From the NCBI GenBank assembly GCA_963662445.1, contig OY759590.1, positions 1,472,249 through 1,536,248 on the forward strand: a DNA stretch of 64,000 nt, read 5' to 3'. Under the pieces are notes generated by a model that saw nothing but the letters and a program-made list of their open reading frames with translations, was not told the DNA's origin and ran no database searches. The position numbers and the translations under genes were made by a program. Within the stretch, counting starts at the first letter, position 1; each line of letters begins with the position of its first letter. Positions 6,466-63,469 of the stretch are shown here, in pieces. The stretch is from Desulfarculia bacterium (GTDB taxonomy: Bacteria > Desulfobacterota > Desulfarculia > Adiutricales > JAGVGV01).

Positions 6466-6555
6466 GGCGGCGACAGGCTTGTATTAAGGAAAACAATTTC
6501 TGTAAAATAATCGGCGCCATCTTGACTGCGCCGAAAGCTTTTGAGGTTATATGAT

Positions 6556-7101: not shown

Positions 7102-7138
7102 TTTTTTGAGCCATGTTTGACGAAAGAGAGAAACAGCC

Positions 7139-12517: not shown

Positions 12518-13234
12518 TTGACCGGTATAGTCAAGGTGAACGGCCTGATGAAAGACTACGGCGAAGGCCGTACGGTGATAACTCAGGCCCTGCGGGGCGT
12601 GGAACTGACCCTGGAGGCCGGTGAGTTCACGGCCATGGCCGGACCGTCCGGTTCGGGCAAGAGCACCCTTCTCAACATCATCGGCGGATTGGACCGGCCG
12701 ACCAGCGGCCATGTTTCCGTGGAAGGCCGGGACCTGACCGGGCTGTCGGACACGGAACTCAGCGTGCTGCGCCGCGAAAGGATCGGCTTCATCTTTCAGT
12801 CTTACAACCTCATCCCTGTCCTGACCGTGCTGGAGAACGCCGAATACGTCCTCATGCTCCAGGGACGTCCCGCCGATGAACGGCGCGCCCGCGTCCGGAC
12901 CATCCTCCGGGAAGTCGGACTTGATGGACTGGAGAAACGTTTTCCCCGCGAACTGTCCGGAGGCCAGCAGCAGCGGGTGGCCATCGCCCGGGCCATCGCC
13001 CCGGAACCTGCCCTGGTGCTGGCCGACGAGCCCACGGCCAACGTGGATTCCAAGACCGCCGGAGGGCTTCTGGAACTGATGAGGAGGCTCAACGAGGAAA
13101 AGGGAACCACCTTCCTCTTTTCCACTCATGATCCGGCGGTCATGAAGAAAGCCCGCCGTTTGCTCCTGCTCAAGGACGGCCGCATTCAGACCGACGGCGG
13201 TCCCGGTGAAACCCCGCATGAAATGCCGGACTGA
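12518..13234 (+). CDS. ABC transporter ATP-binding protein (LolD/MacB-like)
   Basis: Walker A GPSGSGKST, signature LSGGQQQRVAIARA, Walker B LVLADEPT. Confidence 0.9.
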   Translation: MTGIVKVNGLMKDYGEGRTVITQALRGVELTLEAGEFTAMAGPSGSGKSTLLNIIGGLDRPTSGHVSVEGRDLTGLSDTELSVLRRERIGFIFQSYNLIPVLTVLENAEYVLMLQGRPADERRARVRTILREVGLDGLEKRFPRELSGGQQQRVAIARAIAPEPALVLADEPTANVDSKTAGGLLELMRRLNEEKGTTFLFSTHDPAVMKKARRLLLLKDGRIQTDGGPGETPHEMPD

Positions 13235-14528: not shown

Positions 14529-14781
14529 GAAAGATCGGTCTGTTGCCAAACCATGCGGCTGATGGCTGGTTTGATTACCGGCTCCAATGCTTGTTTAAGC
14601 CGCCCTTGTCTTTTTATCCTTTCCAGTCAATCCCGCCGTGGGCAAACGGCCAACGGCCGCCACCAAATGTTCCGCAGGGAGACTTGGTCGGCAAGCTCAA
14701 CGGCGCTTTTTGCCGTCCGGCTGGCGAACCGGTTCTTTCCGATGTATCATTAAAGAGGACATCCGAGGGGAGAGATATCGT

Positions 14782-17064: not shown

Positions 17065-17087
17065 ATGATATCAAGGGGTAAGGTTTG

Positions 17088-20660: not shown

Positions 20661-20786
20661 ATTCTGACCGTGCTCCGGGATAACTGCTTTTATGTCTCGG
20701 GCCGGGCCTGTGAATTCTTTTAACCTGCTGGTTTTCCGGCCGCCAAGGGGTTGTTCCTTGTTAGCCGTTTTTATGCACCTTGTCTT

Positions 20787-20814
20787 TTGACAGTTAAAAA
20801 TCAGATGTTATAAT
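20787..20814 (+). promoter_or_regulatory. Strong sigma-70-type promoter candidate upstream of the PocR kinase
   Basis: TTGACA (20787-20792), 16 nt spacer, TATAAT (20809-20814). Both hexamers match the consensus. Confidence 0.5.
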
Positions 20815-20997
20815 ACCCCGTAAGAATAAAATCCCGCACCACTCTTTGAATGACGCCCGGCTTTTACTTGCCTGGCAGAGTTAATGGCATTATCTCCTGG
20901 CATGGAGTCAGATGGCCGGTCCGGTCTGCCGGTCTGAAGCCGGACCGGGAAGTGCTTCTCTTGACCGGCCGACAACCGTATTTCCCGCCTTTGGGGG

Positions 20998-23900: not shown

Positions 23901-24303
23901 TGAAGCCAAAGGCAAGGTCAAACCCCGGGGCGGGACGGAAACAATCCTCGTTGTCGATGATGACGCGGCCATCAGGGATTTCGCCGCCCAGGCCTTGCAG
24001 CGTTTCGGATACACAGTAATCCCGGCCGACAGCGGAGAAAACGCCTTGGAAGCCTACGCCCGGCAGGGGGCAAAAATAGACCTGGTGATTCTGGACCTGG
24101 GCATGCCCGGCATGGGGGGGCACAAATGCCTGGTCGAATTGTTGCGGATGAATCCGTCGGCCAGGGTCCTCATAGCCAGCGGCTACTCCGAAAACAGCCT
24201 GGCCCGGCGGACACTGGAATCGGGCGCGGCCGGGTTTATCGGCAAACCTTACCTGCTGGGGGACTTGCTGGCTTCGGTGAGGCGGGTTCTGGAAACTGCT
24301 TAG
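20998..24303 (+). CDS. Hybrid sensor histidine kinase with an N-terminal PocR sensory domain, multiple PAS domains, HisKA, HATPase and REC
   Basis: 1101 aa. PocR-like region LANLCESFTKATGAATAILDLEGNVLVATGWRDICTCFHR...YRCRNGMLDAATPIVIAGTHIGNLFTGQF. H-box GGIAHDFNNLLQAI. Receiver ILVVDDD...DLVILDLGMPGMGG. The start may instead be the in-frame TTG at 21013, just after GGAGGAGG. Confidence 0.9.
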   Translation: MEEVCLDYSFKELFDLEVLANLCESFTKATGAATAILDLEGNVLVATGWRDICTCFHRRNPETAIRCTESDTVLAGRLKMGEQYNIYRCRNGMLDAATPIVIAGTHIGNLFTGQFLFEPPDRDFFRRQAAEFGFEEKTYLKALDEVPIFSEEQIRSIMDFLSRLAEVIGETGLARLKLLETNRELKREIAERAKAEDELAQQSELLNNILSNIPHGVFWKDRNSVYLGCNKVCAETFGLKDTESIVGKTEYDLPGDEEEVKSYLRVDRSVIDRGVSLLGIEETLTTAAGGKMSVVTSKAPLRNKDGEIFGLLGIFHDVTELKQAEEALKESEERFRLIFKTSPEAISLSRLADGVYMDVNEGYTLLSGFSREDVLGKTSLETGLWHDPSERERVIQQLSTQGYCDNMEVRLRRKDGSAAVGLLSARIIQLNGVKHVISIVRDITERKRIEDELSRRENLLQKIFEILPVGLWITDRHGRLLSGNPTGVKIWGGEPKVGKEEYGVFKARRLPSGEEIAPDDWSLAHTVNKGVTIAGEMLEIDAFDGQKRIVLNYTAPVLNEAGSLEAAIVVNQDITELKRAEELLRAGEEKYRSLFQEAKRAEEVYRRLLDSSADAIAIYDIDGNAQFVSPAFTRIFGWTPDEVLGRRIDFVPETEKESSLAEIQRVLAGGFSANYQTRRLDKNGRVLDVTISASRFDDHEGNPAGMLVILRDVTQTKDMEIQLRQALKMEAIGTLAGGIAHDFNNLLQAINGYTQLLLMDRTEESPDYAELSAIGKAADRAAGLVRQLLLFSRKLEGARRPVDLNKVVSEAEAVLRRTIPKMIDVDLHLSGDLWSINADPVQMEQILLNLGSNAADAMPDGGQLFIETRNIILDEDYCREHLVATVGRYVLLTVSDTGHGMDKETIEHIFEPFYTTKEVGRGTGLGLASVYGVVKGQGGFIQCYSEPGQGTTFRIYLPAGGLTDSGSLEAKGKVKPRGGTETILVVDDDAAIRDFAAQALQRFGYTVIPADSGENALEAYARQGAKIDLVILDLGMPGMGGHKCLVELLRMNPSARVLIASGYSENSLARRTLESGAAGFIGKPYLLGDLLASVRRVLETA

Positions 24304-27458: not shown

Positions 27459-27487
27459 TTGCCCTTGCCGCCGCATCATTGTATAAT
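27459..27487 (+). promoter_or_regulatory. Sigma-70-type promoter candidate positioned for a leaderless transcript
   Basis: TTGCCC (27459-64), 17 nt spacer, TATAAT (27482-87). ATG at 27495 begins 7 nt after the -10 hexamer, and there is no Shine-Dalgarno sequence. Confidence 0.4.
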
Positions 27488-27494
27488 CCCCTCC

Positions 27495-28418
27495 ATGGCC
27501 AAATCCAACTACAACCCAATGGCAAAACCGCCCAAATACCGGGCCCGCTGGCCTTGGCTCGTCCTCGGCCTGATCGTCGTCCTGGTTATCGTCAACCACC
27601 TCTTCCAGTTCTGGCCCTGGCCGGGAACATCGCCCGAGACCCCTCGGACCGCCGAACCCAAGGCTCCGGCCGCCGCCTCAGGTGAAGTCATCGACTACGG
27701 CAAGATCGAACAGCACTCGGACCTCAAACTCGGTGAAATGATCCTGGAGCGAAAAAAGGAATTCGGTATCGGCGACAGTCTGGATATGGTTGTCGGCTCG
27801 GAAGAGTCAATCAAGGTCGGCAATGAGACCATCTCCATCAAGGACATCCTGGCAGAAATAGAATCCGGCGGCGGAGAGGTCCCCATTGAAGAGATACTCC
27901 CTCAACTCGGCGGCGGCCCGGTTATGGAACAGGACCTGACCGAGAAGCCCGCAGATGCTCAGCCCCCGGCCGCACCGGCGGCTCCGGTTTCTCTGCGCAG
28001 GTCGGTCAAATACTACGGCGTCTACGTGGTCCGGCCCGGCGACAACCTCTGGGATATACATTTCTCCTTTCTTCGTGACTACTTCAGCCACCGGGGCGTG
28101 GAGATATCTTCACGGGCCGATGAATCGCCCAACGGGCGCAGCACGGGCGTGGCCAAGATCCTCAAATATGCGGAAAATATGGTCCATGTCTTCAACATGA
28201 AGACCAAACGCCTGGATCAGGATGTCAATCTGCTCGAACCTTACGAAAAAGTCGTGGTCTTCAATCTGACACATCTCAACCTGATACTCGGTTCCCTCAA
28301 GCCCGAGCAGATCAATGAGATACGTTACGACGGCGACCGCATCTATCTGCCTGGAGCCGAGCCCGCTCCCAAGACCGACGGGCCGCCCCAATCGCCTGCC
28401 TCAGGGGCGAACGGATAG
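27495..28418 (+). CDS. Membrane-anchored hypothetical protein with a LysM-like segment
   Basis: MAKSNYNPMAKPPKYRARWPWLVLGLIVVLVIV (one TM), a Pro/Ala-rich linker, then YYGVYVVRPGDNLWDIHFSFL (LysM-like). Confidence 0.6.
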   Translation: MAKSNYNPMAKPPKYRARWPWLVLGLIVVLVIVNHLFQFWPWPGTSPETPRTAEPKAPAAASGEVIDYGKIEQHSDLKLGEMILERKKEFGIGDSLDMVVGSEESIKVGNETISIKDILAEIESGGGEVPIEEILPQLGGGPVMEQDLTEKPADAQPPAAPAAPVSLRRSVKYYGVYVVRPGDNLWDIHFSFLRDYFSHRGVEISSRADESPNGRSTGVAKILKYAENMVHVFNMKTKRLDQDVNLLEPYEKVVVFNLTHLNLILGSLKPEQINEIRYDGDRIYLPGAEPAPKTDGPPQSPASGANG

Positions 28419-52403: not shown

Positions 52404-52652
52404 AAGTGTTATCCTCCACCGGACAAGGCAGGTGCGCCCACCGACCGGCTGGCTTGACGCTGTGTTCGTTGTTTGCTGAACTTAATTTAACATGTAAAGC
52501 CTCAAACGACCAGATGCCCTGGCTTTGCCCCAACCCGTGCCGGTTTCTTTCGGCCGTGCCGGAGTATTTTCTCGTTTCTCCCGACGAGTCTCCTGAAAAT
52601 GTGTCCGGGCGTCATTTTTTTCTTGACCACATCGTTTGCTTCCTGTAATTGT

Positions 52653-52670
52653 TTCCATCAAATGCTGGAA
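52653..52670. promoter_or_regulatory. Candidate TetR operator (imperfect palindrome) at the tetR promoter
   Basis: TTCCATCAAATGCTGGAA. 15 of 16 core positions are identical to the site at 53421-53438. It lies downstream of a possible TTGACC-17-TAATTG promoter. Confidence 0.4.
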
Positions 52671-52691
52671 GAAAGGGTTTGGACTTTCCGC

Positions 52692-53327
52692 ATGCCTTCA
52701 CCACTCGAAAAAGCCCGAAAAGATCCGGACTCCATGAAAGCCAAGATACTGGCCGTGGCCAAGCGCGTCTTCGGGCAATACGGGTATCATGGCGCGACCA
52801 CCCGCATCATCGCCAAGGAAGTCGGTATCGACATCTCCACTCTCTATTATCACTGGGGTGAGAAGAACGACCTGTATGAAGCGGTTATCCTCGACATTAC
52901 CGAGGATCTCCGGCAGCAGCTCGGTCGGGTCGAGAAGACGGTCCGCGGACGGCCTCTGGCCGAGCGTATGGACATCGCCATAGACATGATGACCGACTAC
53001 CTGTTCCAGAATTCCGAAATAGCCAACCTGACCTTTTTCCGTTATTTCGCCAAGACCCGGGAAAAAATGAAGTGGCAGGACAAAATTCCCGACTTTGTCT
53101 CGGACATCGCCCGGTCCATGGGCATAGCGGAAGAGGACGGCACCGTCTCCATCCACGCCCGTATGCGCATCCTCTGCATGATGAACTCCATCTACGATTT
53201 CATTTCCGGCGAGGAATTTTTCCGTGCGGCCCTGGAACTGGAGCGCGACGAGTATATTCCCCTGGCCATAGAAACGCTGAAATTCATTCTCATACCGGCC
53301 TTTGCCGGAGTTAAGCCAGCCGCCTGA
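52692..53327 (+). CDS. TetR/AcrR-family transcriptional regulator
   Basis: KAKILAVAKRVFGQYGYHGATTRIIAKEVGIDISTLYYHWGEKNDLYEAV is a TetR HTH. The start could also be ATG at 52662. Confidence 0.85.
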   Translation: MPSPLEKARKDPDSMKAKILAVAKRVFGQYGYHGATTRIIAKEVGIDISTLYYHWGEKNDLYEAVILDITEDLRQQLGRVEKTVRGRPLAERMDIAIDMMTDYLFQNSEIANLTFFRYFAKTREKMKWQDKIPDFVSDIARSMGIAEEDGTVSIHARMRILCMMNSIYDFISGEEFFRAALELERDEYIPLAIETLKFILIPAFAGVKPAA

Positions 53328-53420
53328 GCGCGGCCGCCCATATAGTTTCAGTTTCAAGCGGCGAATAAAAAGGACCCTCCGACCGGCGGAGCGGGCCTTG
53401 GCGTTTTGGCAGACTCTTTT

Positions 53421-53438
53421 CTCCATCAAATGATGGAG
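53421..53438. promoter_or_regulatory. Candidate TetR operator (perfect 8 bp inverted repeat) upstream of the acyl-CoA operon
   Basis: CTCCATCA-AA-TGATGGAG, 63 nt upstream of ATG at 53501. Confidence 0.45.
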
Positions 53439-53500
53439 TATTTGCGCAACTGTAACGTTCCCGAATAATAAAACTCAATTTCCACAAAGGAGGAACCGGG

Positions 53501-55636
53501 ATGGCCCTCAATCTGGACGCCATCGGCAAGAAGATCGGCCCCCTCAGCAAGGACTATGACTGGAAAGACATAGTCCTCTATGCCCTGGGCGTAGGGGCCG
53601 GCTTTGACGAGTTGGACTACGTGTACGAAAACCGCCTCAAGGTGATCCCCAGCTACTCCATCGCCAGTGTCTTCGATTTTCTGGCTGAAGCGGCTCTTTC
53701 GGCCAACGCCAACCTGGCCGGGATTCTCCATGGGGAACAGGACATCATTTTCCACAATCCAATACCTGTCGAAGGCACCCTGACCACCGAGGGCGCGGTT
53801 ACCCACATGTTCGACAAGGGTGAGGGCAAAGGCGCGCTGGTGGTGGCCAAGGCCGACACCTACCATTCCAACGGCCAGAAACTCTTCACCAATATCTTCA
53901 CCCTGTTCAGCCGTCTGGACGGAGGCTTCGGCGGCGAAAAGGGTGACGAGGAGAAGGTGGATTTCCCCGACCGCGCTCCGGATTTCGAGGAACTGGCCAA
54001 TCCTTCGGAGGATCAGCCGCTTCTGTACCGGCTTTCCGGGGACATCTTCACCCTCCATGTCGATCCCGATTTCGCCAAGGCCTCGGGCTTTGAAAAACCC
54101 ATCATGCACGGGCTCTGCACGCACGGGTACACCTGCCGCGCAGTCATCAAACACCTGTTCCCCGGCGAACCGGAGCGCATGTCCCGTTTCCGCGTCCGTT
54201 TCTCCCGGACGCTCTATCCCGGCATCGCCATCAAGACTCAGATCTGGAAGACCGAAGAGGGGCGGGCTGTTTTCCGGGTGGTCAACACGGCCAACAACGA
54301 CGTTGTCATCGACAAGGGCGTGGTGGAATGGCTCAGCAAGGAAGAGTATGAGCGCCGCCAGCGTCTGGGCGGTCTGCGTTTTGAAGACAAGGTTGCTGTG
54401 GTTACCGGTGCCGGGGCCGGTCTCGGCCGGGTGTACGCCTTGGAACTGGCCAAGAGGGGGGCCAAGGTTGTGGTCAACGACCTGGGCGGTTCCCGCGACG
54501 GGGCCGGGGGCTCATCGGCTCCGGCCGACACTGTGGTCAAGGAGATCAAGGCGATGGGCGGCGAGGCTGTGGCCAACTACGATTCCGTGGCCACCGCCGA
54601 GGGCGGTCAGGCCATAATCGACGCGGCTGTGGCCGCTTTCGGCCGGGTGGACATCGTCATCAACAACGCCGGCATCCTCCGGGACAAGACCCTGGTCAAG
54701 ATGGACCCGGAAAACTGGGACACGGTCATGGACGTGCATCTCAAGGGTGCTTACAACGTCACCCGTCCGGCCTATGTCAAGATGCGGGAACAGGGTTACG
54801 GCCGGATAGTCTTTACCACCTCGGCCGCCGGTTTGTACGGCAACTTCGGCCAGACCAACTACTCGGCCGCCAAGATGGGGCTGGTAGGCTTTATGAACAC
54901 ATTGAAGATAGAGGGCGGGAAGAACGACATCAAGGTCAACACCGTGGCTCCGGTGGCGGCCACCCGGCTGACCGAAGACATCCTGCCGCCTGAGATGCTG
55001 GCCAAGCTCAAGCCTGAATTCGTGGCTCCCCTGGTCCTTTATCTCTGTTCGGAGCAGTGCCCTGATTCCGGCCGGATCTACAACGCCGGCATGGGGTACT
55101 TCAACCGTGCGGCGGTTCTGACCGGTCCTGGTGCGGTGGTCGGCGACGGCAAGTCCATACCCACGCCCGAGCAGGTGGCCGAGGCCATGCCCAAGATCAA
55201 AGCCATGGGCGGGGCCAAGGAATACCCCAATCTCAACGCGGCTCTGACGCCCATGCTGGAAGCCTTTTCGCCCAAGAAAGAGGCGCCGGCGGCCGGGGCG
55301 CAGGGGGGCGGAGGCGGCTTGACCGTGCCCGGAATCTTCGCGGCCATGAAGGATGCCTTCCAGGCCGACAAGGCCGCCGGGGTCGAGGTGGTTTTTCAGT
55401 ATGACATCAGCGGCGCGGGCGGCGGTTCCTGGAACGTCCAGATCAAGGACGGGGCCTGCTCCATCGCGGAGGGCAAACACGCCAGCCCCACCACCACCCT
55501 GGGCATGGGTGATGAAGACTTCATCCGGATGATCCGGGGCGAACTGAACGCCATGACGGCTTTCACCAGCGGCAAGCTCAAGATCGGCGGCGATGTCATG
55601 AAGTCTCAACTCATCGAAAAACTCTTCAAGTTCTGA
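53501..55636 (+). CDS. MFE-2-like multifunctional enzyme: double hot-dog (R)-specific enoyl-CoA hydratase 2, then SDR (3R)-hydroxyacyl-CoA dehydrogenase, then an SCP2 domain
   Basis: 711 aa. Hydratase-2-type motif YRLSGDIFTLHVDPDFA. The SDR region (VAVVTGAGAGLGRVYALELAKRGAKVVVNDLGG, NNAGILRD, GNFGQTNYSAAK) resembles the HSD17B4 dehydrogenase domain as I remember it. The C-terminal SCP2-like region is GDEDFIRMIRGELNAMTAFTSGKLKIGGD. Confidence 0.9.
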   Translation: MALNLDAIGKKIGPLSKDYDWKDIVLYALGVGAGFDELDYVYENRLKVIPSYSIASVFDFLAEAALSANANLAGILHGEQDIIFHNPIPVEGTLTTEGAVTHMFDKGEGKGALVVAKADTYHSNGQKLFTNIFTLFSRLDGGFGGEKGDEEKVDFPDRAPDFEELANPSEDQPLLYRLSGDIFTLHVDPDFAKASGFEKPIMHGLCTHGYTCRAVIKHLFPGEPERMSRFRVRFSRTLYPGIAIKTQIWKTEEGRAVFRVVNTANNDVVIDKGVVEWLSKEEYERRQRLGGLRFEDKVAVVTGAGAGLGRVYALELAKRGAKVVVNDLGGSRDGAGGSSAPADTVVKEIKAMGGEAVANYDSVATAEGGQAIIDAAVAAFGRVDIVINNAGILRDKTLVKMDPENWDTVMDVHLKGAYNVTRPAYVKMREQGYGRIVFTTSAAGLYGNFGQTNYSAAKMGLVGFMNTLKIEGGKNDIKVNTVAPVAATRLTEDILPPEMLAKLKPEFVAPLVLYLCSEQCPDSGRIYNAGMGYFNRAAVLTGPGAVVGDGKSIPTPEQVAEAMPKIKAMGGAKEYPNLNAALTPMLEAFSPKKEAPAAGAQGGGGGLTVPGIFAAMKDAFQADKAAGVEVVFQYDISGAGGGSWNVQIKDGACSIAEGKHASPTTTLGMGDEDFIRMIRGELNAMTAFTSGKLKIGGDVMKSQLIEKLFKF

Positions 55637-55656
55637 TTGCCAGAGGAGGTAGTCCC

Positions 55657-58398
55657 ATGATCGGCATCACAGCATACGGCGGTTACATCCCCCGGCTCAG
55701 GCTTAACCGCATGTCCATCTACCAGGCCATGGGCTGGTTCGCCCCGGCCCTGATCGCGGTGGCCCAGGGGGAGAGGTCATTCTGCAACTGGGATGAAGAC
55801 AGCCTGACCATGGCCGTGGCCGCGGGCAAGGACTGTCTGACCGGACAGGATAAATCCCTGATCGACGGTGTATTTCTAGGTTCGACAACCCTGCCGTTCA
55901 GCGACCGGCTGAACTCGGGGGTTCTCAAAACGACCCTCAACCTGGGCGACGAGATCAAGGCGGCGGACTTCACGTCGTCTCTCCGTGCCGGGACCACGGC
56001 GCTGGTGGAGGCTCTGACGGCGGTCAAGAGCGGGGACAACAACCAGGTCCTGGTTGCGGCCTCGGACAAGCGCCAGGCCAAGATGGGTTATTTCTACGAG
56101 ATGTGGTTCGGCGACGGAGCCGCGTCGGTTCTGGTCGGGCGGGAAAACGTCATCGCCGAACACCTGGGCTCCCATACGGTGACCAGCGACTTCGTGGATC
56201 ACTACCGGGGCCAGAACAACCAGTTCGATTACATGTGGGAAGAGCGCTGGGTCCGCGATGAAGGGTATTCCAAGATAGTTCCGGCCGCCGTCAACGGCCT
56301 GCTGAAGAAGCTTTCCCTGTCCATGGACGACATCAGCCGGTTTGTTTTCCCCTGTTTCTTCAAGGCCGAGCATCTGAAGATAGGCAAGGGCCTTGGGGCC
56401 GGGGGCGGCAAGCTGATGGACAACCTGCACGAGGTCTGCGGCGAGACCGGGGCGGCTCATCCCCTGGTCATGCTGGTCAAGGCGCTGGAGGAAGCCAAGC
56501 CCGGAGACCGGATTCTGGTGGCCGGTTTCGGGCAGGGCTGCGACGCCATGTGCTTTCAGGTCACCGAGGCTATCCTGGACCTGCCGGCCCGCCGGGGCAT
56601 AAACGGTTCCCTGGCCCAGAAGAAGACCACGGACAACTATCAGAAGTTTCTGAAGTTCCGGGACCTGATACAGCCGGAGATGGGCATCAGGGCGGAAGCG
56701 CCGACCCAGACGGCCATGACGGTGCTGTACCGCAAGAGGGACATGCTGTTCGGGCTGGTCGGCGGGAAGTGTTCCAAGTGCGGCACTCCCCAGTTCCCGC
56801 GCATGGATATATGCGTCAACCCGGACTGCCGCGCCGTGCATACTCAGGAGCCTTATGAATTCGCCGGTGTTCCGGCCAAGGTCAAGACCTTTACCGGTGA
56901 CCTGCTGGCCGTTTCGGTCGATCCGCCCGCCATCTACGGCATGGTTCAGTTTGAAGGCGGCGGACGCTTCATGGCCGACTTCACGGATTGCGAACTCGGC
57001 GATGTCCGGGTGGGACAGCCGGTGGAGATGAGCTTCCGGAGGCGTTACCTTGACCGGGAGCGTGGTTTTTCGGGGTATTTCTGGAAAGCCGTTCCGCTGC
57101 CCGTGAAGGAAGCCCCTGCGGCTTCCGAGGAGCGCATCCGTTTTGACGATCAGGTGGCAGTGGTCACCGGGGCCGGGGCTGGTCTTGGGCGGGTATATGC
57201 GCTCGAACTGGCCAAACGGGGAGCCAAAGTCGTCGTCAACGACCTGGGTGGGGCTCGCGACGGCGCCGGAGGCTCCTCGACCCCGGCCGACACTGTGGTC
57301 AAGGAGATCAAGGAGCTGGGCGGCGAGGCCGTGGCCAACTACGATTCCGTGGCTACGCAGGAAGGCGGACAGTCCCTTATCGACGCAGCCGTGGCCGCTT
57401 TCGGCCGGGTGGACATCGTGGTCAACAACGCCGGCATCCTCCGGGACAAGACCCTGGTGAAGATGGACCCGGAAAACTGGGACGCGGTCATGGCGGTTCA
57501 TCTTAAGGGCGCTTACAACGTCACCCGCCCGGCCTTTATAAAGATGCGCGAACAGGGTTACGGCCGCATAATTTTCACCACTTCCGCCGCCGGACTGTAC
57601 GGCAATTTCGGCCAGACCAACTATTCGGCCGCCAAGATGGCCCTGGTGGGCTTCATGAACACCCTCAAAGCCGAAGGCGAGAAGCACAACATCCGGGTCA
57701 ACACAGTGGCCCCCATCGCCGCTACCCGGTTGACTGAAGACGTGATGCCGCCGGATCTGTTCGCCAAGCTCAAGCCGGAATTCGTGGCTCCGCTGGTGCT
57801 TTATCTGGCTTCTAACGAATGCTCCGAAACCGGCCAGATATTCAACGCGGGCATGGGGTACTTCAACCGGGCGGCCATAGTCACCGGTCCGGGCGCGGTA
57901 GTCGGCGACGGCAAGACTCCCCCGGCCCCGGAAGAGCTGCACAAGAATTGGGAGGCGGTCAATTCGCTGGAGGGCGGTCAGGAATACCCCAACGCCACCG
58001 CGGCTTTCAGCCCCATGCTGGATGCTTTTTCGCCCAAGAAGGCTGAAGCGGCGGAAGGCGGGGCCGGTTCCGGCGGCGGACAGGCCGTGGCCGGTATTTT
58101 CGAGGGCATGCCGGGAGCTTTCCAGGCGGACAAAGCCGCAGGGGTGGACGTGGTCTTCCAGTTCTCCATCACCGGGCCCGAAGGCGGCGACTGGTTCGCC
58201 GTGGTCAAGGACGGCAAGCTGGAAGTGGGCCAGGGCCGGCACGGTTCGCCGACCACCACCATAAAGATGGCCGATCAGGACTTCGTCAAGCTCATCACCG
58301 GCGAACTGAACGCCATGGCCGCCTTCACGGGGGGCAAGCTCCGTATAGATGGCGACCTGATGAAGTCCCAGCTCATAGAGAAGCTTTTCAAGTTCTGA
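55657..58398 (+). CDS. Four-domain fusion: HMG-CoA-synthase-like thiolase-fold domain, DUF35 (zinc ribbon plus OB fold), SDR dehydrogenase, SCP2
   Basis: 913 aa. N-terminus MIGITAYGGYIPRLRL (HMGCS/COG3425-like). CSKCGTPQFPRMDICVNPDC followed by an OB-fold region (DUF35). The SDR and SCP2 part is about 80-85% identical to the upstream gene. Confidence 0.85.
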   Translation: MIGITAYGGYIPRLRLNRMSIYQAMGWFAPALIAVAQGERSFCNWDEDSLTMAVAAGKDCLTGQDKSLIDGVFLGSTTLPFSDRLNSGVLKTTLNLGDEIKAADFTSSLRAGTTALVEALTAVKSGDNNQVLVAASDKRQAKMGYFYEMWFGDGAASVLVGRENVIAEHLGSHTVTSDFVDHYRGQNNQFDYMWEERWVRDEGYSKIVPAAVNGLLKKLSLSMDDISRFVFPCFFKAEHLKIGKGLGAGGGKLMDNLHEVCGETGAAHPLVMLVKALEEAKPGDRILVAGFGQGCDAMCFQVTEAILDLPARRGINGSLAQKKTTDNYQKFLKFRDLIQPEMGIRAEAPTQTAMTVLYRKRDMLFGLVGGKCSKCGTPQFPRMDICVNPDCRAVHTQEPYEFAGVPAKVKTFTGDLLAVSVDPPAIYGMVQFEGGGRFMADFTDCELGDVRVGQPVEMSFRRRYLDRERGFSGYFWKAVPLPVKEAPAASEERIRFDDQVAVVTGAGAGLGRVYALELAKRGAKVVVNDLGGARDGAGGSSTPADTVVKEIKELGGEAVANYDSVATQEGGQSLIDAAVAAFGRVDIVVNNAGILRDKTLVKMDPENWDAVMAVHLKGAYNVTRPAFIKMREQGYGRIIFTTSAAGLYGNFGQTNYSAAKMALVGFMNTLKAEGEKHNIRVNTVAPIAATRLTEDVMPPDLFAKLKPEFVAPLVLYLASNECSETGQIFNAGMGYFNRAAIVTGPGAVVGDGKTPPAPEELHKNWEAVNSLEGGQEYPNATAAFSPMLDAFSPKKAEAAEGGAGSGGGQAVAGIFEGMPGAFQADKAAGVDVVFQFSITGPEGGDWFAVVKDGKLEVGQGRHGSPTTTIKMADQDFVKLITGELNAMAAFTGGKLRIDGDLMKSQLIEKLFKF

Positions 58399-58454
58399 AA
58401 ACAGCGTCATCTCGCCCCGGCCGGGTTCCGGGCGGGGCGGAGGAGGAATAAATA

Positions 58455-59663
58455 ATGGCCACAGGAATCAAGGACAAAGTCGCTATTATCGGCATGGGCT
58501 GCACCCGTTTCGGCGAGCGCTGGGACGTGGGGGCGGAGGAGCTCATGGTCGAGGCCTACTCCGAGTGCCTTGAAGACGCCGGTATCGAGACCAAGGATAT
58601 CCAGGCTGCCTGGCAGGGCACCTGCATGGAAGAGATAAACGTGGGCAAGAGCGCCCTGCCTCTGGCGACCACTCTGCGCCTGCCCTTCATCCCGGTCACG
58701 CGGGTGGAAAACTATTGCGCTTCCGGCACGGAGGCCTTTCGCGGGGCGGTGTACGCCGTGGCTTCCGGGGCTTACGATGTCTGTCTGGCCCTGGGGGTGG
58801 AGAAGCTGAAGGACACCGGCTACGGCGGCCTGCCGAACCCCGGATCGAACTTCGGCTCTTTGCAGTGGCTCTGGATGCCCAACATGACCGCCCCCGGCGT
58901 CTTTGCCCAGCTCGCTTCGGCCTATGCCGCCAAATTCAAGGTCAAGGACCAGGATCTGAAGAGGGCCATAGCCCAGGTATCGGTCAAGAGCCACGAGAAC
59001 GGGGCTCTCAATCCCAAGGCCCACCTGCGCAAGCGGGTAACCATCGATCAGGTCATGGCCGCGCCCATCATCGCCCATCCGCTGGGGCTCTTCGACTGCT
59101 GCGGGGTTTCGGACGGCTCGGCCTGCGCCATCGTCACTACGGTGGAAAAGGCCAAGGACATGGGCATCAAGAACCCGGTCACCGTCAAGGCTCTCCAACT
59201 CTCTCTTTCCAATGGCGAGGAGATGGGGTTCAACGAGTGGGAGGGGGCCAATTTCGCGACCACCGACAAGTGCAGTGTCAAGGCCTACAAGGAGGCCGGA
59301 ATAACCGACCCCCGCGAGGAAATTTCCATGATGGAGCTGCACGACTGTTTCTCCATCACCGAACTTGTCACTTACGAGGACCTGCATATCTCCGACAGGG
59401 GCAGCGCCTGGAAAGACGTGCTCGCGGGCTTCTACAACCGGGACGGCAAGGTTCCGGCCCAGGTCGACGGCGGCCTGAAATGCTTCGGCCATCCCATAGG
59501 CGCTTCAGGTCTGCGCATGCTCTACGAGATGTATCTGCAACTGCTGGGGCGGGCGGGTGACAGGCAGATCGAGAATCCCCGGCATGGCCTGACCCATAAC
59601 CTGGGCGGTTTTCCTTTCCAGAATGTTTGCAGCATCGCCATAGTCGGGCGGCTCAACGATTAG
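58455..59663 (+). CDS. SCPx/Ltp-type thiolase (thiolase-domain protein of the kind that partners with DUF35)
   Basis: 402 aa. VAIIGMGCTRFGERW, nucleophile-type NYCASGTEAF, and C-terminal CFGHPIGASG. Confidence 0.9.
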   Translation: MATGIKDKVAIIGMGCTRFGERWDVGAEELMVEAYSECLEDAGIETKDIQAAWQGTCMEEINVGKSALPLATTLRLPFIPVTRVENYCASGTEAFRGAVYAVASGAYDVCLALGVEKLKDTGYGGLPNPGSNFGSLQWLWMPNMTAPGVFAQLASAYAAKFKVKDQDLKRAIAQVSVKSHENGALNPKAHLRKRVTIDQVMAAPIIAHPLGLFDCCGVSDGSACAIVTTVEKAKDMGIKNPVTVKALQLSLSNGEEMGFNEWEGANFATTDKCSVKAYKEAGITDPREEISMMELHDCFSITELVTYEDLHISDRGSAWKDVLAGFYNRDGKVPAQVDGGLKCFGHPIGASGLRMLYEMYLQLLGRAGDRQIENPRHGLTHNLGGFPFQNVCSIAIVGRLND

Positions 59664-59672
59664 GAGGCAGGA

Positions 59673-60017
59673 ATGCTGGAAATCCGGGCGATCATGGATT
59701 CGGCCGTGGAAGACGTTTTGAATTTCAAGACCTGCTGCGGAGCGCGAACTTTCGATCAGAACCTGGAGATCCACGTCAAGAATACTGGTTCCGACCCGGT
59801 GGTGGTCCCCAGCCGCTTCGATCTGGAGGGCGGCTTCGGGACCTACCGGGTCGAGACTCTCATCCCTCACGGAGACCAGTACATAGCGCCGGGTGTGACC
59901 ATAGCCTTCTACTGCACCATGGAGCCCGGCCGCTGGGCCGACGCCCGGCGCATGATTTTTCAGGACAATCAAGGCCGCAGTTACCCCGTGGACATCATCC
60001 ACGAGCAGAAGGAGTAA
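59673..60017 (+). CDS. Hypothetical protein (114 aa) with no family I recognise
   Basis: AGGAGG lies 6 nt upstream of the start. The gene begins 9 nt after the thiolase stop and ends 4 nt before the ACAD start. Codon usage resembles its neighbours. Confidence 0.6.
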   Translation: MLEIRAIMDSAVEDVLNFKTCCGARTFDQNLEIHVKNTGSDPVVVPSRFDLEGGFGTYRVETLIPHGDQYIAPGVTIAFYCTMEPGRWADARRMIFQDNQGRSYPVDIIHEQKE

Positions 60018-60021
60018 GAAA

Positions 60022-61164
60022 ATGAATATCCTCTCCTATACCGAAGAACACCGCATTTTCCGCGAGAGTCTCCGTAAATTTTTTGAAAAGGAAGTCATTC
60101 CTCATGTGGAGGAATGGGAAGAGGCCGGCATTGTCCCCAAGTCCGTCTGGAAAAAGATGGGCGACCAGGGCTTCCTGTGCATGACGGTGCCGGAGGAATA
60201 CGGCGGTCTGGGGGCTGATTTCCTTTATTCGGTCATCATGACCGAGGAACTGGCCCGCACGAACCATTCCGGGCTGGCCGTCCCTCTGCACAGCGACATA
60301 GTGATTCCTTACATCCTGTCCTTCGCCTCGGAGGAACTGAAGCACAAATATCTGCCCGGCTGCGTGTCCGGCGACACGATCACAGCCGTGGCCATGACCG
60401 AGCCCAACGCTGGTTCGGACCTTGCGTCGATGCGGACCACGGCTGTGCAGGACGGAGACCATGTTGTCATCAACGGGCAGAAGACCTTCATTTCCAACGG
60501 CATAAATTCCGACCTGGTCGTTCTGGCGGCCAAGGACCCGTCGGTTACGAACCCTCACCAGTCGATAGACCTTTATCTGGTGGAAGCCGGGACGCCCGGT
60601 TTCGAGAAGGGCAAGAAGATCAAGAAGGTGGGCTGGCACAGCCAGGATACGGCGGAGCTGTTTTTCACTGACTGCCGCGTGCCCGTGGCCAACCGGCTGG
60701 GCATGAAGGGCGGCGGCTTCCTGATGCTCATGGAGAAACTCCAGCAGGAGCGCCTGATGTGTGCGCTGGTCGCGGTGGCTTCGGCGGAGAACATGATCGA
60801 AATGACGACCCGGTATGTCAAGGAACGCACCGCCTTCGGCCGGCCCATTTCCAAGTTCCAGAACACTCAGTTCCGCATGGTGGAAATGGCCACCGAGGTG
60901 AAGCTGGGGCGTACTTTCATCGACAAGCTCATTGCCGAACACGTGGAAGGCAAGAACGTGGTGGTGGAAGTTTCCATGGCTAAATACTGGACCACGGAGA
61001 TGGCCATGCGGGTGGCCGACGGCTGCGTGCAACTCCACGGCGGTTACGGGTACTGCGAGGAATACCCCATTGCCAGGGCCTGGCGTGACACGCGGGTACT
61101 TTCGATTTTCGCGGGCACCAACGAGATCATGAAGGGTATCGCGGCCAAGTTCATGGGACTCTGA
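60022..61164 (+). CDS. Acyl-CoA dehydrogenase
   Basis: 380 aa. AVAMTEPNAGSDLASMRTTA, and C-terminal YGYCEEYPIARAWRDTRVLSIFAGTNEIM. Confidence 0.9.
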   Translation: MNILSYTEEHRIFRESLRKFFEKEVIPHVEEWEEAGIVPKSVWKKMGDQGFLCMTVPEEYGGLGADFLYSVIMTEELARTNHSGLAVPLHSDIVIPYILSFASEELKHKYLPGCVSGDTITAVAMTEPNAGSDLASMRTTAVQDGDHVVINGQKTFISNGINSDLVVLAAKDPSVTNPHQSIDLYLVEAGTPGFEKGKKIKKVGWHSQDTAELFFTDCRVPVANRLGMKGGGFLMLMEKLQQERLMCALVAVASAENMIEMTTRYVKERTAFGRPISKFQNTQFRMVEMATEVKLGRTFIDKLIAEHVEGKNVVVEVSMAKYWTTEMAMRVADGCVQLHGGYGYCEEYPIARAWRDTRVLSIFAGTNEIMKGIAAKFMGL

Positions 61165-61219
61165 TCCCGGGCCTTTTTGTTCCGGCAGCGTTGCCTGCGA
61201 ATATTCCAGCCTACAAATT

Positions 61220-61253
61220 GGGGCCGCCGCCCATCCCGCCGGGCGGCGGCCCC
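61220..61253 (+). other. Very stable intra-operon hairpin (13 bp G+C stem)
   Basis: GGGGCCGCCGCCC-atcccgcc-GGGCGGCGGCCCC. No U-tract follows. Confidence 0.5.
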
Positions 61254-61301
61254 GCAACCTTATCCGGCCGCCGGGCCGCCGGCGGGGCAGGGGACGGGGA
61301 T

Positions 61302-61754
61302 ATGAACAGTCTTACGCCTGAACTTATTGCCAAGTATGTCGAGGAGGCGGTGCCTTTTGTCCACAGGACGGGCATTCGCTCGATCTCCCTGGAGCCGCGC
61401 CGGGTCAAGATGATGGTCCCGCTGGCCGGTAACGAGAACCACATCGGCTCCATGTACGCCGGCGCTCTCTTTACCCTGGCGGAGATGCCCGGCGGAGCCG
61501 TCTTTCTGACCACTTTCGATGCGTCAGTTTTTTATCCCGTGGTCAAGGAGATGAACATCCGGTATCTGAAGCCCGCCCGTTCCGATGTGACCATTGAAAT
61601 CGCCATAGCCGCCGACGAGGCCGAGCGCATAGAAAAGGAGGCCCGGGAAAAAGGCAAGGCCGAATTCATCCTGGAGGGCGAACTGATAGACCGTGACGGC
61701 CAGGTCGTCGCCCGCAGTCATGGCGTTTACCAGATAAGACTCATTGGCCGCTGA
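61302..61754 (+). CDS. PaaI/YiiD_C-type hot-dog thioesterase
   Basis: VPLAGNENHIGSMYAGALFTLAEMPGGAVF is typical of the family. I took ATG at 61302. Confidence 0.75.
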   Translation: MNSLTPELIAKYVEEAVPFVHRTGIRSISLEPRRVKMMVPLAGNENHIGSMYAGALFTLAEMPGGAVFLTTFDASVFYPVVKEMNIRYLKPARSDVTIEIAIAADEAERIEKEAREKGKAEFILEGELIDRDGQVVARSHGVYQIRLIGR

Positions 61755-61774
61755 CTCCTACGGAGGGAAAAGAC

Positions 61775-63469
61775 GTGAGCTACGATGACCGTCCCTGGTT
61801 GAAATGGTATGACGATGGCGTCAAGCCGGAAGTCCGGGTTCCCGATGAAACAGCTCTCGACCGCCTCCTGCGCGTCCGGGACAAATACTCGGGCAGGCCT
61901 GCCTTGTACTTTCTTGGCCGGACCATAACCTATGCCCGGCTCTTCGAGCATTCCGCCCGCTTCGCCCAGGCCCTTTCCAAGGCCGGGTGCCGTCCCGGCG
62001 ATGTCGTGGCCATCAACCTCCCCAACATCCCTCAATACCTGGTCGCCCAGATCGGCGCGATCATGGCCGGTTGCGCAGCCTCGGGCCTTTCGCCTCTGCT
62101 CACTGCGCCGGAGATGGTCCACCAGCTCAAGGACAGCCGGGCCGCCGCCCTGGTCACTCTGGACGCGGTTTTTGAAAAGCGTTTTCTGGAGATAGAAAAA
62201 CAGCTCCCTGACCTGAAGTTCGTCGCCGCCGCCGGGCTGCTCGACTACGCCAGTCCGGTCAAACGTTTGCTGGGGAACTGGCTGAAAAAGGTACCCACCG
62301 GCAAGGTCACCCCTCTGCCCGGACGCACGGTCGCCCGCTTCAAGGAAATGCTCAAGGAGAACGAGCCCAATCCGCCGGAAGTGAAGATCACTCCGGACCA
62401 CACCATGCTGGTCCAGTACACCGGCGGGACCACCGGTTTGCCGAAGGGGGCCATGCTGACTCACCGGAATTTCATTTCGAACCTGGCCCAGTTCGATCAC
62501 TGGATGGGGCTGGAGCCTGGCCGCGAGGTATTCCTGTCCGGTTTTCCTTTCTTTCACCTAGCCGGGCTCGGCGTGGGCATGCTGGGATTGAGCCTGGGGG
62601 CGGCCCAGATACTCATCCCCAACCCTCGGGACACCAAGTTCATAGTCAAGGAAATGTCATCCCGGCCGCCGACCTTCATGACCAACGTTCCTTCCCTTTA
62701 CATGATGCTGACCGAGGATGAGGGATTCAGGAAGCTTGATTTTTCGGTCCTGAGCTGCTGCATATCGGGAGCCGCTCCGTACCCCGCGGAATCCATCCTG
62801 GAGCTCGAAAAGATCATCGGTCCGGGCAAGGTCGTGGAAGTGTACGGCATGACGGAGACCAGTCCTCTCATCACCATGAATCCCAGGCGGGGCCGGAAGA
62901 AGATCGGCTCCGTAGGCCTGCCTCTGCCTTCCACCCGCATCCGGCTAGTCGACCTGGAAAACGGCGTGGACCAGGTTCCGGTCGGCGAAGAAGGAGAACT
63001 GATCTGCCAGGGGCCTCAGGTCATGAAAGGCTACCATGGAAAACCGGCCGAGACGGCGGCCGTTCTCCGTCAGGCGGAAGACCAAATATGGATTCATACC
63101 GGCGACATTGCCCGGATGGATGAAGATGGTTTTTTCTATATCGTCGACCGGGCCAAGGACATGCTCAATGTGGGAGGATACAAGGTTTTTTCCCGCGAAC
63201 TGGAAGACAAATTTTACAGTCACCCGGCCATAGAGCTCTGCGCCGTCGTCGGATTGCCCAACCGGAAACGTCCCGGCAGCGAGATAGTCAAGCTGGTTGT
63301 CCAGAAATCGGCGGCCTGGCAGGACCGCACCGACGAAGAAACCCGTGCTGCCATTGATGAATACGCCCGGGCCAATCTTTCTGCGTACAAGGTGCCCAAG
63401 GTGATCGAATTCGTATCCAGTATGCCTCTGACCAACGTGGGGAAGGTTGACAAAAAGGCTCTACGCTGA
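61775..63469 (+). CDS. Long-chain acyl-CoA ligase (AMP-forming), FadD-like
   Basis: 564 aa. AMP-binding motifs YTGGTTGLPKGAMLTH, YGMTETS, TGDIARMDEDGFFYIVDRAKD, and a C-terminal GKVDKKAL. Confidence 0.9.
   Translation: MSYDDRPWLKWYDDGVKPEVRVPDETALDRLLRVRDKYSGRPALYFLGRTITYARLFEHSARFAQALSKAGCRPGDVVAINLPNIPQYLVAQIGAIMAGCAASGLSPLLTAPEMVHQLKDSRAAALVTLDAVFEKRFLEIEKQLPDLKFVAAAGLLDYASPVKRLLGNWLKKVPTGKVTPLPGRTVARFKEMLKENEPNPPEVKITPDHTMLVQYTGGTTGLPKGAMLTHRNFISNLAQFDHWMGLEPGREVFLSGFPFFHLAGLGVGMLGLSLGAAQILIPNPRDTKFIVKEMSSRPPTFMTNVPSLYMMLTEDEGFRKLDFSVLSCCISGAAPYPAESILELEKIIGPGKVVEVYGMTETSPLITMNPRRGRKKIGSVGLPLPSTRIRLVDLENGVDQVPVGEEGELICQGPQVMKGYHGKPAETAAVLRQAEDQIWIHTGDIARMDEDGFFYIVDRAKDMLNVGGYKVFSRELEDKFYSHPAIELCAVVGLPNRKRPGSEIVKLVVQKSAAWQDRTDEETRAAIDEYARANLSAYKVPKVIEFVSSMPLTNVGKVDKKALR

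Follow-up and report, generated by a model that had tools for sequence, protein, structure and literature searches.

What pathway is encoded by a bacterial gene cluster that combines peroxisome-like beta-oxidation enzymes, sterol-carrier (SCP2) domains, and an apparent HMG-CoA synthase (HMGS)? The cluster lies in a stretch of 64,000 nucleotides (nt) from a Desulfarculia bacterium (contig OY759590.1, positions 1,472,249 to 1,536,248), referred to here as the window. A TetR-family regulator gene is followed after 173 nt by seven genes on the + strand, which are separated by 20, 56, 9, 4, 137, and 20 nt. This open reading frame (ORF) map reproduces exactly the gene order, the six gaps, and the upstream regulator given in an earlier reading of the DNA (the original prediction). 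We consider it rather probable that the cluster encodes a self-contained, catabolic, R-specific long-chain beta-oxidation cycle, plausibly built as one thiolase-centered complex. Beta-oxidation itself is known. The uncharacterized part is its fused form on an apparent scaffold, which many anaerobic Desulfobacterota share.

The proteins that carry this architecture are at present annotated merely as "SDR family oxidoreductase". A literature search, with supplements and most subscription journals outside its scope, found no paper on these architectures or on the operon, in line with the original prediction, to which no characterized bacterial system of this kind was known. The main text of a proteogenomics paper on Desulfobacteraceae leaves them unmentioned.

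Hydratase, dehydrogenase, and SCP2 on one chain

The Pfam scan upheld the original assignments of SCP2, DUF35, hydratase-2, and all other domains. Matches above the gathering cut-off are hydratase-2, MaoC, adh_short, SCP2, OB_ChsH2_C, ACP_syn_III_C, thiolase, acyl-CoA dehydrogenase (ACAD), DUF4442/YiiD_C/4HBT, and AMP-binding, while the zf-ChsH2 and N-terminal ACP_syn_III matches are slightly under it. None of the eight proteins has a Pfam match to a crotonase or 3S-specific hydroxyacyl-CoA dehydrogenase (3S-HADH) family. The R-specific parts list proposed earlier is therefore borne out as a complete R-type set resembling that of MFE-2, the peroxisomal multifunctional enzyme (HSD17B4).

The first structural gene encodes a protein of 711 amino acids (aa) with the Pfam domain order MFE-2_hydrat-2_N, MaoC, adh_short, and SCP2. 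Its N-terminal double hot-dog domain is 37% identical to Drosophila MFE-2, and its matches in the PDB include 3khp, human 1s9c, and Drosophila 3oml. Residues E79, D181, and H186 are invariant in 45 orthologues. Family-wide, the hydratase-2 signature is GD[IV]F[AQT]LH and not GDxNPxH, with the N-P pair replaced by F183 and A, Q, or T (residues 179-187, window 54035-54061). A short-chain dehydrogenase/reductase (SDR) domain follows, with 2et6, 3oml, 1gz6, and 1zbq as best PDB matches and a core that is 55% identical to the Drosophila MFE-2 dehydrogenase. TGxxxGxG, the NDLG Asp, and S441/Y454/K458 are invariant. The SCP2 domain at the end of the chain is preceded by a Gly/Ala-rich linker.

A predicted pseudoenzyme fused to DUF35 and a second dehydrogenase

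The next protein, of 913 aa, starts with an ACP_syn_III-type (HMGS-like) domain, continues with zf-ChsH2/OB_ChsH2_C (DUF35), and ends with a second adh_short and a second SCP2 domain. In the PDB, the HMGS-like domain matches PhlA best (9skh_A, 5m3k_A), followed by the archaeal HMGS 6esq_I. Its score against the NCBIfam model of archaeal HMGS, PRK04262, is 188 bits, under the cut-off of 244. A tetrad of Glu, Cys, His, and Asn (E-C-H-N) is essential for HMGS (PMC12960953). In a residue alignment, the tetrad of 6esq_I (E82/C114/H238/N270) becomes T77/L109/P232/E263 in the 913-aa protein. T77, P232, and E263 are invariant, and L109 is found in 38 of 45 orthologues. With all four tetrad residues replaced and the model score below cut-off, a true HMG-CoA synthase is ruled out. 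Judged by these residues, the domain is a catalytically dead pseudoenzyme. The original HMGCS-like call was right about the fold but missed both the replaced tetrad and the scaffold that this domain would form with DUF35 and the thiolase.

The DUF35 part matches 6esq_E, the DUF35 subunit of the archaeal thiolase/HMGS/DUF35 complex, and its zinc-ribbon cysteines (C372/C375/C386/C391) are invariant. The SDR domain behind it finds 2et6, 1gz6, 1zbq, and 3oml as best PDB matches, and G505/G507/G511, D529, S643, Y656, and K660 are invariant. Both SDR domains of the cluster score 300-450 bits to MFE-2 dehydrogenases, as against about 165 bits or less to other SDRs in the PDB. Both copies have an invariant Gly-rich motif, Ser-Tyr-Lys triad, and Asp of VVVNDLG, the last of which, by established SDR rules, marks NAD-preferring enzymes. 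The nearest structures to both SDRs and to the hydratase are those of eukaryotic peroxisomal MFE-2, which confirms the parallel drawn in the original prediction. From homology, 3R stereochemistry is likely.

An intact thiolase and the remaining genes

The third gene encodes a thiolase of 402 aa, which scores 693 bits against NCBIfam PRK06157, over the cut-off of 403. It matches 7yvy, 6esq_A, BbsB 7pxp_C, and the SCP2-thiolase 6hsj in the PDB, its closest structures being archaeal acetoacetyl-CoA thiolases, BbsB, and SCP2-thiolases. Cys88 (in N[YF]CA[ST]G), HDCF, and FGHP are kept in 67 of 67 orthologues. The protein is predicted to be an active 3-ketoacyl-CoA thiolase of the SCP2/archaeal type. 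Pfam finds no SCP2 domain on it; the SCP2 domains are on the 711-aa and 913-aa proteins. The SCPx parallel of the original prediction holds for the type of thiolase but not for a thiolase fused to SCP2.

No Pfam or NCBIfam family matches the product of the fourth gene, orf114. It has 20 homologues, in which C21 and C22 (a Cys-Cys pair) and C81 are invariant, and where present it always lies between the thiolase and ACAD genes. A single-sequence AF2 (AlphaFold2) model was unusable (pLDDT 38). The alignment-based model (pLDDT 84) is a beta-sandwich with weak matches to the ApaG-like (ApaG/DUF525) fold at TM scores of 0.40-0.46. This is a real conserved gene; that its product serves as an adaptor is a guess.

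The ACAD matches 2pg0_A from Geobacillus at 505 bits, human LCAD (long-chain acyl-CoA dehydrogenase, 8w0t) at 357 bits, and the Bcd type (butyryl-CoA dehydrogenases) at 277 bits. On these matches it is an LCAD-like, long-chain-type enzyme. The hot-dog protein is a homologue of PA5026 (1sh8_A, 164 bits) and a putative acyl-CoA thioesterase. A TTG start at 61191 was discarded in favor of the ATG at 61302 on the alignment with PA5026. The best NCBIfam matches of the 564-aa protein are long-chain-fatty-acid-CoA ligase models, all below cut-off, and by this resemblance it is a long-chain-type, FadD-like acyl-CoA ligase. Both of these last genes appear to be lineage-specific accessories. The features are collected in Table 1.

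Table 1. Genes, domains, and candidate signals of the cluster, in window coordinates
Feature	Position	Strand	Evidence or remark
TetR-family regulator	52599..53327	+	Pfam TetR_N, 54 bits
Promoter-like site, TTGGCA-17-AATGAT	53406-53434	+	Sole such site upstream of the 711-aa gene
Perfect palindrome, CTCCATCAAATGATGGAG	53421-53438	+	Overlaps the -10 of the promoter-like site
Gene of the 711-aa protein	53501-55636	+	ORF map, Pfam
711-aa protein, residues 1-280, double hot-dog 2-enoyl-CoA hydratase 2	53501..54340	+	Pfam, PDB
711-aa protein, residues about 291-540, MFE-2-type (3R)-hydroxyacyl-CoA dehydrogenase (SDR)	54371..55120	+	PDB, motifs
711-aa protein, residues 620-711, SCP2 lipid-binding domain	55358..55636	+	Pfam SCP2, 62.6 bits (cut-off 21.3)
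Gene of the 913-aa protein	55657-58398	+	ORF map, Pfam
913-aa protein, residues 1-339, HMG-CoA-synthase-like (PhlA-like) domain	55657..56673	+	NCBIfam, PDB
913-aa protein, residues 362-463, DUF35 (zinc ribbon and OB fold)	56740..57045	+	Pfam zf-ChsH2 and OB_ChsH2_C
913-aa protein, residues about 493-742, second MFE-2-type dehydrogenase	57133..57882	+	PDB, motifs
913-aa protein, residues 825-913, second SCP2 domain	58129..58398	+	Pfam SCP2, 67.2 bits (cut-off 21.3)
Thiolase gene (402 aa)	58455-59663	+	Pfam Thiolase_N/Thiolase_C_1
orf114 (114 aa)	59673-60017	+	ORF map; no family match
ACAD gene (380 aa)	60022-61164	+	Pfam, three ACAD domains
Terminator-like hairpin	61154-61169	+	Overlaps the ACAD stop codon; T-run after it
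Hot-dog protein gene	61302-61754	+	Pfam DUF4442/YiiD_C/4HBT
Acyl-CoA ligase gene (564 aa)	61775-63469	+	Pfam AMP-binding and AMP-binding_C

A conserved core and its distribution

Synteny was counted in 80 related loci, each figure being corrected for contig ends. The 711-aa gene stands beside the 913-aa gene in 65 of 66 loci, and the thiolase gene does so in 64 of 66, so the neighborhood recurs across genomes beyond chance. The ACAD gene is present in 40 of 52 loci, orf114 in 23 of 52, and a TetR gene upstream on the same strand in 44 of 63. The hot-dog gene is found in 4 of 46 loci and a FadD orthologue at 50% identity or more in 5 of 46, although other acyl-CoA ligases occur in many related loci. 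These counts define a conserved core of TetR-711-913-thiolase-(orf114)-ACAD, to which the hot-dog and FadD genes are, as the comparison indicates, local, lineage-specific additions.

Because the last two genes are so rarely shared and lie behind the 137-nt gap with its hairpin, the gene set is less a seven-gene operon than a core of five genes with two more added on. The hairpin may be a partial terminator ahead of the accessory genes. Since this pair is absent from most orthologous clusters, it may form a separate or attenuated transcription unit.

Relatives of the 913-aa protein make up no fewer than 1,254 clusters at 90% identity in the database searched. The best 120 of these are 66-100% identical to it and match over the full length, except for two (94% and 98% coverage). 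Its closest relatives, at 76-77% identity, are in metagenome-assembled genomes (MAGs) of Desulfobacteraceae and Ca. Desulfacyla. A scan with one genome per species gave at least 564 carrier species. Among the matches listed, most are Desulfobacterales, Desulfomonilales, Syntrophales, and Desulfarculales, with a few MAGs labeled Myxococcota, and the cultured carriers include Desulfosarcina alkanivorans PL12 and D. widdelii PP31. Comparison across these genomes indicates a genuine operon, conserved in many bacteria of the sulfate-reducer type.

Other lipid genes adjoin the core in some lineages. A FadH-like 2,4-dienoyl-CoA reductase gene (Oxidored_FMN and Pyr_redox_2) is next to the cluster in 8 of 80 loci (L072, at 17171-19177, and L049, L017, L001, L003, L004, L010, and L034). 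A gene of the family-III CoA-transferase fold is present in about 10 of 80 (for example L053, L069, L049, L078, and L060). In D. widdelii PP31, a homologue of alpha-methylacyl-CoA racemase (AMACR) lies directly 3' of the ACAD gene, inside the cluster (L072, 15150-16286). It scores 221 bits to M. tuberculosis MCR, as against 165 to other family members, and its catalytic residues His126, Asp127, and Asp156 are conserved.

In an architecture search of 1.8 billion representative proteins, the full 913-aa architecture is essentially one cluster at 50% identity. An 800-aa variant (P0147) has the dead-HMGS-DUF35-SDR part, its match stopping at query residue 785, before SCP2. Stand-alone dead-HMGS-DUF35 proteins of about 485 aa form dozens of clusters that are 37-59% identical to residues 1-481. 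One of them, a 488-aa relative at 59% identity (P0148, locus L081), lies in a minimal locus of TetR, the 488-aa protein, and a thiolase. The existence of the 800-aa and stand-alone 488-aa forms as architectural intermediates suggests that the 913-aa protein grew by stepwise accretion.

A duplicated SDR-linker-SCP2 module

Over their last 420 residues, the 711-aa and 913-aa proteins align without a gap, at 74.5% protein and 76% DNA identity (window 54371-55633 against 57133-58395). Across 28 genomes, the two modules of one genome are 75% identical on average, as against 67% for orthologues between genomes, and in 10-11 of the 28 a module is closest to its own neighbor. In three MAGs the two modules are 99.5%, 97.9%, and 89.5% identical, while the best orthologue is at about 77-80%, with the caveat that assembly collapse could produce such extreme values in MAGs. 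Concerted modules are seen at loci L033, L002, and L001. The pattern indicates that recurrent gene conversion homogenizes the two modules in several lineages, which implies that they do the same job.

Modules that are homogenized in this way would be equivalent and could dimerize with each other. MFE-2 dehydrogenases are dimers. A heterodimer of the 711-aa and 913-aa proteins through their SDR domains is therefore plausible by analogy, and it would bring the hydratase to the thiolase scaffold.

Relation to known complexes

The domain homologies place the cluster structurally among the thiolase/HMGS/DUF35 assemblies, in the subclass with a dead HMGS and competence for thiolysis. In the PfACAT/HMGS-DUF35 system of Pseudomonas fluorescens, a fused dead HMGS-DUF35 protein accompanies an intact ACAT, and the complex carries out thiolysis of acetoacetyl-CoA but no condensation (PMC12960953). 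About 1,001 similar "minimal" bacterial HMGS-ACAT-DUF35 loci, of unexplained role, have been read as possibly functionless evolutionary intermediates (PMC12960953). As in that system, one chain here carries both the HMGS-like and the DUF35 part, and the E-C-H-N tetrad is lost while the partner thiolase retains Cys, HDxF, and GHx. The fusion differs in the addition of an MFE-2-type dehydrogenase and SCP2, and the locus differs in being a full beta-oxidation set with hydratase-2 and ACAD. This setting supplies a physiological context that was left unassigned in PMC12960953.

The same three folds make up the archaeal thiolase/HMGS/DUF35 complex, with significant matches to 6esq_A, 6esq_I, and 6esq_E, and here too DUF35 has a four-Cys zinc ribbon and an OB fold. 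In contrast to that complex, HMGS and DUF35 are fused, the HMGS is predicted to be inactive and so would make no HMG-CoA, and the setting is degradative, not that of the mevalonate pathway. PhlACB (PDB 5M3K, 9SKH) is likewise a tripartite assembly of dead HMGS, DUF35, and a thiolase-fold protein, and its PhlA is the top structural match of the HMGS-like domain. However, PhlC has lost HDxF and acylates phenols, whereas the thiolase here keeps HDCF. No polyketide synthase gene is in the window, and none of type III is near the cluster. A Friedel-Crafts acyltransferase of the PhlACB type is ruled out by the retained HDCF and by the lack of polyketide machinery in the window.

From the peroxisomal side, the likeness to MFE-2 consists of hydratase 2, a (3R)-type SDR, and SCP2 on one chain, with SCP2 at the C-terminus. 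The hydratase has the predicted catalytic Glu, Asp, and His, and the SDR signature is of the NAD type. A homologue of AMACR is present in some related genomes, and the thiolase is of the SCP2 type found in SCPx. There are also clear differences. The order is hydratase-SDR-SCP2 here and SDR-hydratase-SCP2 in MFE-2, and the hydratase motif is without the N-P pair. SCP2 is not fused to the thiolase as in SCPx. The dehydrogenase-SCP2 module is duplicated, with one copy on a dead-HMGS/DUF35 scaffold, and an ACAD takes the place of acyl-CoA oxidase. The cluster would work like peroxisomal MFE-2 plus SCPx, yet with its different domain order and a thiolase that lacks SCP2 it belongs to neither architecture.

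A proposed cycle and its direction

In the cycle that we propose, FadD would activate the free acid and the LCAD-like ACAD would yield the 2-enoyl-CoA. The hydratase-2 domain of the 711-aa protein would hydrate this to the (3R)-hydroxyacyl-CoA, which either of the near-identical NAD-type MFE-2 dehydrogenase domains, on the 711-aa or the 913-aa protein, could oxidize. The SCP2-type thiolase would then release acetyl-CoA (or propionyl-CoA). The dead HMGS and DUF35 half of the 913-aa protein would be without catalytic function. Its role would be to dock the thiolase, as the archaeal complex, PhlACB, and PfACAT/HMGS-DUF35 suggest, and so to join dehydrogenase to thiolase. An SDR-SDR dimer with the 913-aa protein may bring in the 711-aa protein, and the two SCP2 domains, on flexible Gly/Ala linkers, would hold the hydrophobic tail of the substrate. 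Formation of such a complex, argued from these analogues, is plausible, with the chances about evenly balanced. The adjacent TetR protein would probably repress the locus until acyl-CoA is present.

A catabolic direction is likely. It is argued by the NAD-type signature, the presence of an ACAD and not an enoyl-CoA reductase, and the thiolysis-only precedent of P. fluorescens. The TetR regulator and the ligases, racemase, and dienoyl-CoA reductase, as catabolic auxiliaries, point the same way. As to substrates, we favor a broad specificity for long-chain acids generally, probably including 2-methyl-branched and unsaturated ones, although this is uncertain. The wide distribution suggests general long-chain substrates, as do the housekeeping surroundings and the neighboring FadH-like and ligase genes. 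Competence for 2-methyl-branched acids is suggested by the racemase, the LCAD-like ACAD, and the MFE-2 and SCP2-thiolase types.

Several points weigh against this cycle as drawn. The R-specific DUF35 set of Sulfolobus is biosynthetic, so the parts alone do not fix a direction. The hydratase-2 signature departs from the canonical one, most loci keep the core without the hot-dog and FadD genes, and the racemase and dienoyl-CoA reductase genes are absent from the window's own cluster. SDR heterodimerization and the holding of tails by SCP2 are conjecture.

Alternative explanations

The nearest alternative shares the enzymology and differs in substrate exclusivity alone. It holds that the pathway is dedicated to bulky or 2-methyl-branched acyl-CoAs and mirrors the peroxisomal beta-oxidation of pristanate and bile acids. 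Candidate substrates would be isoprenoid acids, mid-chain methyl-branched fatty acids, and the 4-methyl- or 2-methyl-alkanoyl-CoAs derived from alkylsuccinates. Peroxisomal MFE-2-type enzymes and SCP2-type thiolase handle 2-methyl substrates, and homology to just these enzymes, together with the LCAD-like ACAD, speaks for a dedicated pathway. So do the AMACR homologue inside the D. widdelii cluster, with similar genes in about 10 of 80 loci, and the hydrocarbon degraders D. alkanivorans and D. widdelii among the carriers. But the window's cluster has no racemase, and the carriers number at least 564 species in several orders. The cluster is flanked by housekeeping genes and not by a hydrocarbon or isoprenoid island, while the FadH-like reductase and several generic ligases elsewhere fit ordinary fatty-acid degradation. 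We regard exclusive use of such substrates as possible but unlikely. The branched substrates of the original prediction keep some support from the racemase homologues, and its word "dedicated" was an overstatement.

A stronger version of the proposed complex is likewise unlikely. Here the 711-aa protein, the 913-aa protein, and the thiolase would form one processive machine that passes intermediates on without release. The CoA end of the substrate would be held by the dead HMGS, which would still have the shared CoA-binding chamber known from the archaeal complex, SCP2 would hold the lipid tail, and the hydratase, the dehydrogenase pair, and the thiolase would act in turn.

That the cluster is instead a biosynthetic, CoA-dependent, R-specific synthase of fatty acids or (R)-3-hydroxyacyl compounds, as in Sulfolobus, is improbable. 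Some Desulfobacterota run beta-oxidation enzymes reversibly, which counts for this explanation, as does the set of parts shared with the archaeal complex (thiolase, DUF35, SDR, and MaoC, with R stereochemistry). In Sulfolobus acidocaldarius, DUF35 holds ketothiolase, R-specific SDR, and MaoC together in a fatty acid synthase complex (bioRxiv 10.1101/2024.07.05.601840). The complex is a biosynthetic one that depends on NADPH and works with a separate enoyl-CoA reductase of the medium-chain dehydrogenase/reductase (MDR) type (bioRxiv 10.1101/2024.07.05.601840). The beta-oxidation of Sulfolobus is S-specific, and its R-specific DUF35 set is the biosynthetic one. The likeness to our cluster lies in a ketothiolase, an R-specific SDR, and a MaoC hydratase/dehydratase around DUF35. 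In contrast, the SDRs here have an NAD-type signature Asp and resemble the NAD-dependent MFE-2, not the NADPH-specific archaeal reductase; an ACAD is present and no MDR-type enoyl-CoA reductase is in the cluster. Covalent fusions replace a purely non-covalent association. The characterized dead-HMGS-DUF35/ACAT complex does thiolysis only, the ligases, racemase, and dienoyl-CoA reductase are catabolic, and TetR repressors are typical of catabolic operons.

Degradation of steroid or hopanoid side chains, with the thiolase-like protein acting as a retro-aldolase docked on DUF35, is highly improbable. DUF35, a MaoC hydratase, a thiolase fold, an ACAD, a ligase, and TetR are all present, and DUF35-mediated hydratase-aldolase complexes are known: in ChsH1-ChsH2-Ltp2 and Shy-Sal, DUF35 docks a thiolase-fold enzyme beside the preceding enzyme of the pathway. 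Those thiolase-fold enzymes are aldolases with YDHF or YDCY, whereas the thiolase here keeps Cys88 and HDCF. Their DUF35 is fused to the MaoC hydratase, while here it is fused to the dead HMGS and a dehydrogenase. Instead of a ChsH1/ChsH2 pair, the cluster has a hydratase with the MFE-2 double hot-dog on a single chain. ChsE enzymes are heteromeric ACADs, and this cluster has one ACAD gene. No ring-degradation genes are in the 64-kb window. The sterol side-chain parallel (ChsH/Ltp2/ChsE) of the original prediction is given up on the retained HDCF, the placement of DUF35 on a dead HMGS, and the single ACAD gene. Finally, the idea that dead HMGS, DUF35, and thiolase are a functionless evolutionary intermediate in a cluster that is no coherent pathway follows the interpretation of minimal loci in PMC12960953, but it is scarcely credible given the conservation of the 913-aa protein at 66-77% identity over nearly its whole length in the 120 best clusters, the invariant scaffold residues and zinc-ribbon cysteines, and the fixed synteny with hydratase, thiolase, and ACAD genes, which would be unexpected for a relic.

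Implications

The preferred explanation, R-specific long-chain beta-oxidation on a thiolase scaffold, bears on the roughly one thousand bacterial dead-HMGS/DUF35/thiolase loci. Because the scaffold is fused to beta-oxidation enzymes in Desulfobacterota, it suggests that these loci serve as degradative thiolase complexes. The cluster is likely a major route of lipid breakdown in complete-oxidizing sulfate reducers and syntrophs, and its carriers mineralize much of the organic carbon of anoxic sediments. It offers a naturally fused, R-specific bacterial model for peroxisome-type chemistry, in which channeling and SCP2 function could be studied, and could be of use in engineering the handling of methyl-branched acyl-CoAs. 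As a corollary of the processive machine, the Desulfobacterota/Myxococcota-type proteins could be close bacterial relatives of peroxisomal MFE-2/SCP2, which, if so, would touch on the bacterial origin of R-specific beta-oxidation in eukaryotes.

Regulator and candidate operator

In NCBIfam, the TetR protein weakly resembles the acyl-CoA-responsive regulators FasR, PsrA, and Bacillus FadR, with no score reaching the cut-off. About 45 extra residues stand at the N-terminus of its ORF as called, and the helix-turn-helix starts only at residue 50. The true start is for this reason probably downstream of 52599, for example at an internal Met, residue 22, at about 52662.

Upstream of the 711-aa gene, a perfect palindrome overlaps the promoter-like site (Table 1). 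The pattern TCCATCA-N2-TGATGGA, with two mismatches or fewer, recurs in 5 of 65 orthologous upstream regions, one of them that of D. alkanivorans, as against 0.05 expected from shuffles. The palindrome is a weak candidate for a TetR operator restricted to some lineages. Counting of k-mers found no universal TetR operator, and the lineage-restricted palindrome alone emerged. The promoter and terminator scan was uninformative overall, promoter counts being those of shuffled sequence. Rfam and tRNA scans gave nothing bearing on the locus.

Other genes in the window

The rest of the 64-kb window holds unrelated housekeeping and signaling genes. Neighbors are MutS, an amidase, RF2, Lnt, a sigma-54 activator, PAS kinases, a NeuB-type sugar cluster, and a MacB-type ABC system, and a response regulator gene lies downstream of the cluster. 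Three ORFs of 396, 440, and 319 aa, at 6547-7737 (- strand), 13206-14528 (+), and 27459-28418 (+), are putative genes with no Pfam match at E <= 1e-5. The sugar genes at 1286-4905 (- strand) form a nonulosonic (sialic-acid-like) set of NeuB, UDP-GlcNAc 2-epimerase, CMP-sugar cytidylyltransferase, and a PglD-like acetyltransferase. At 14638-24303 (+ strand), an 808-aa protein with two periplasmic-binding-protein stretches is followed by two hybrid sensor kinases that are very large (1191 aa and 1101 aa); a PocR sensory domain is part of the second.

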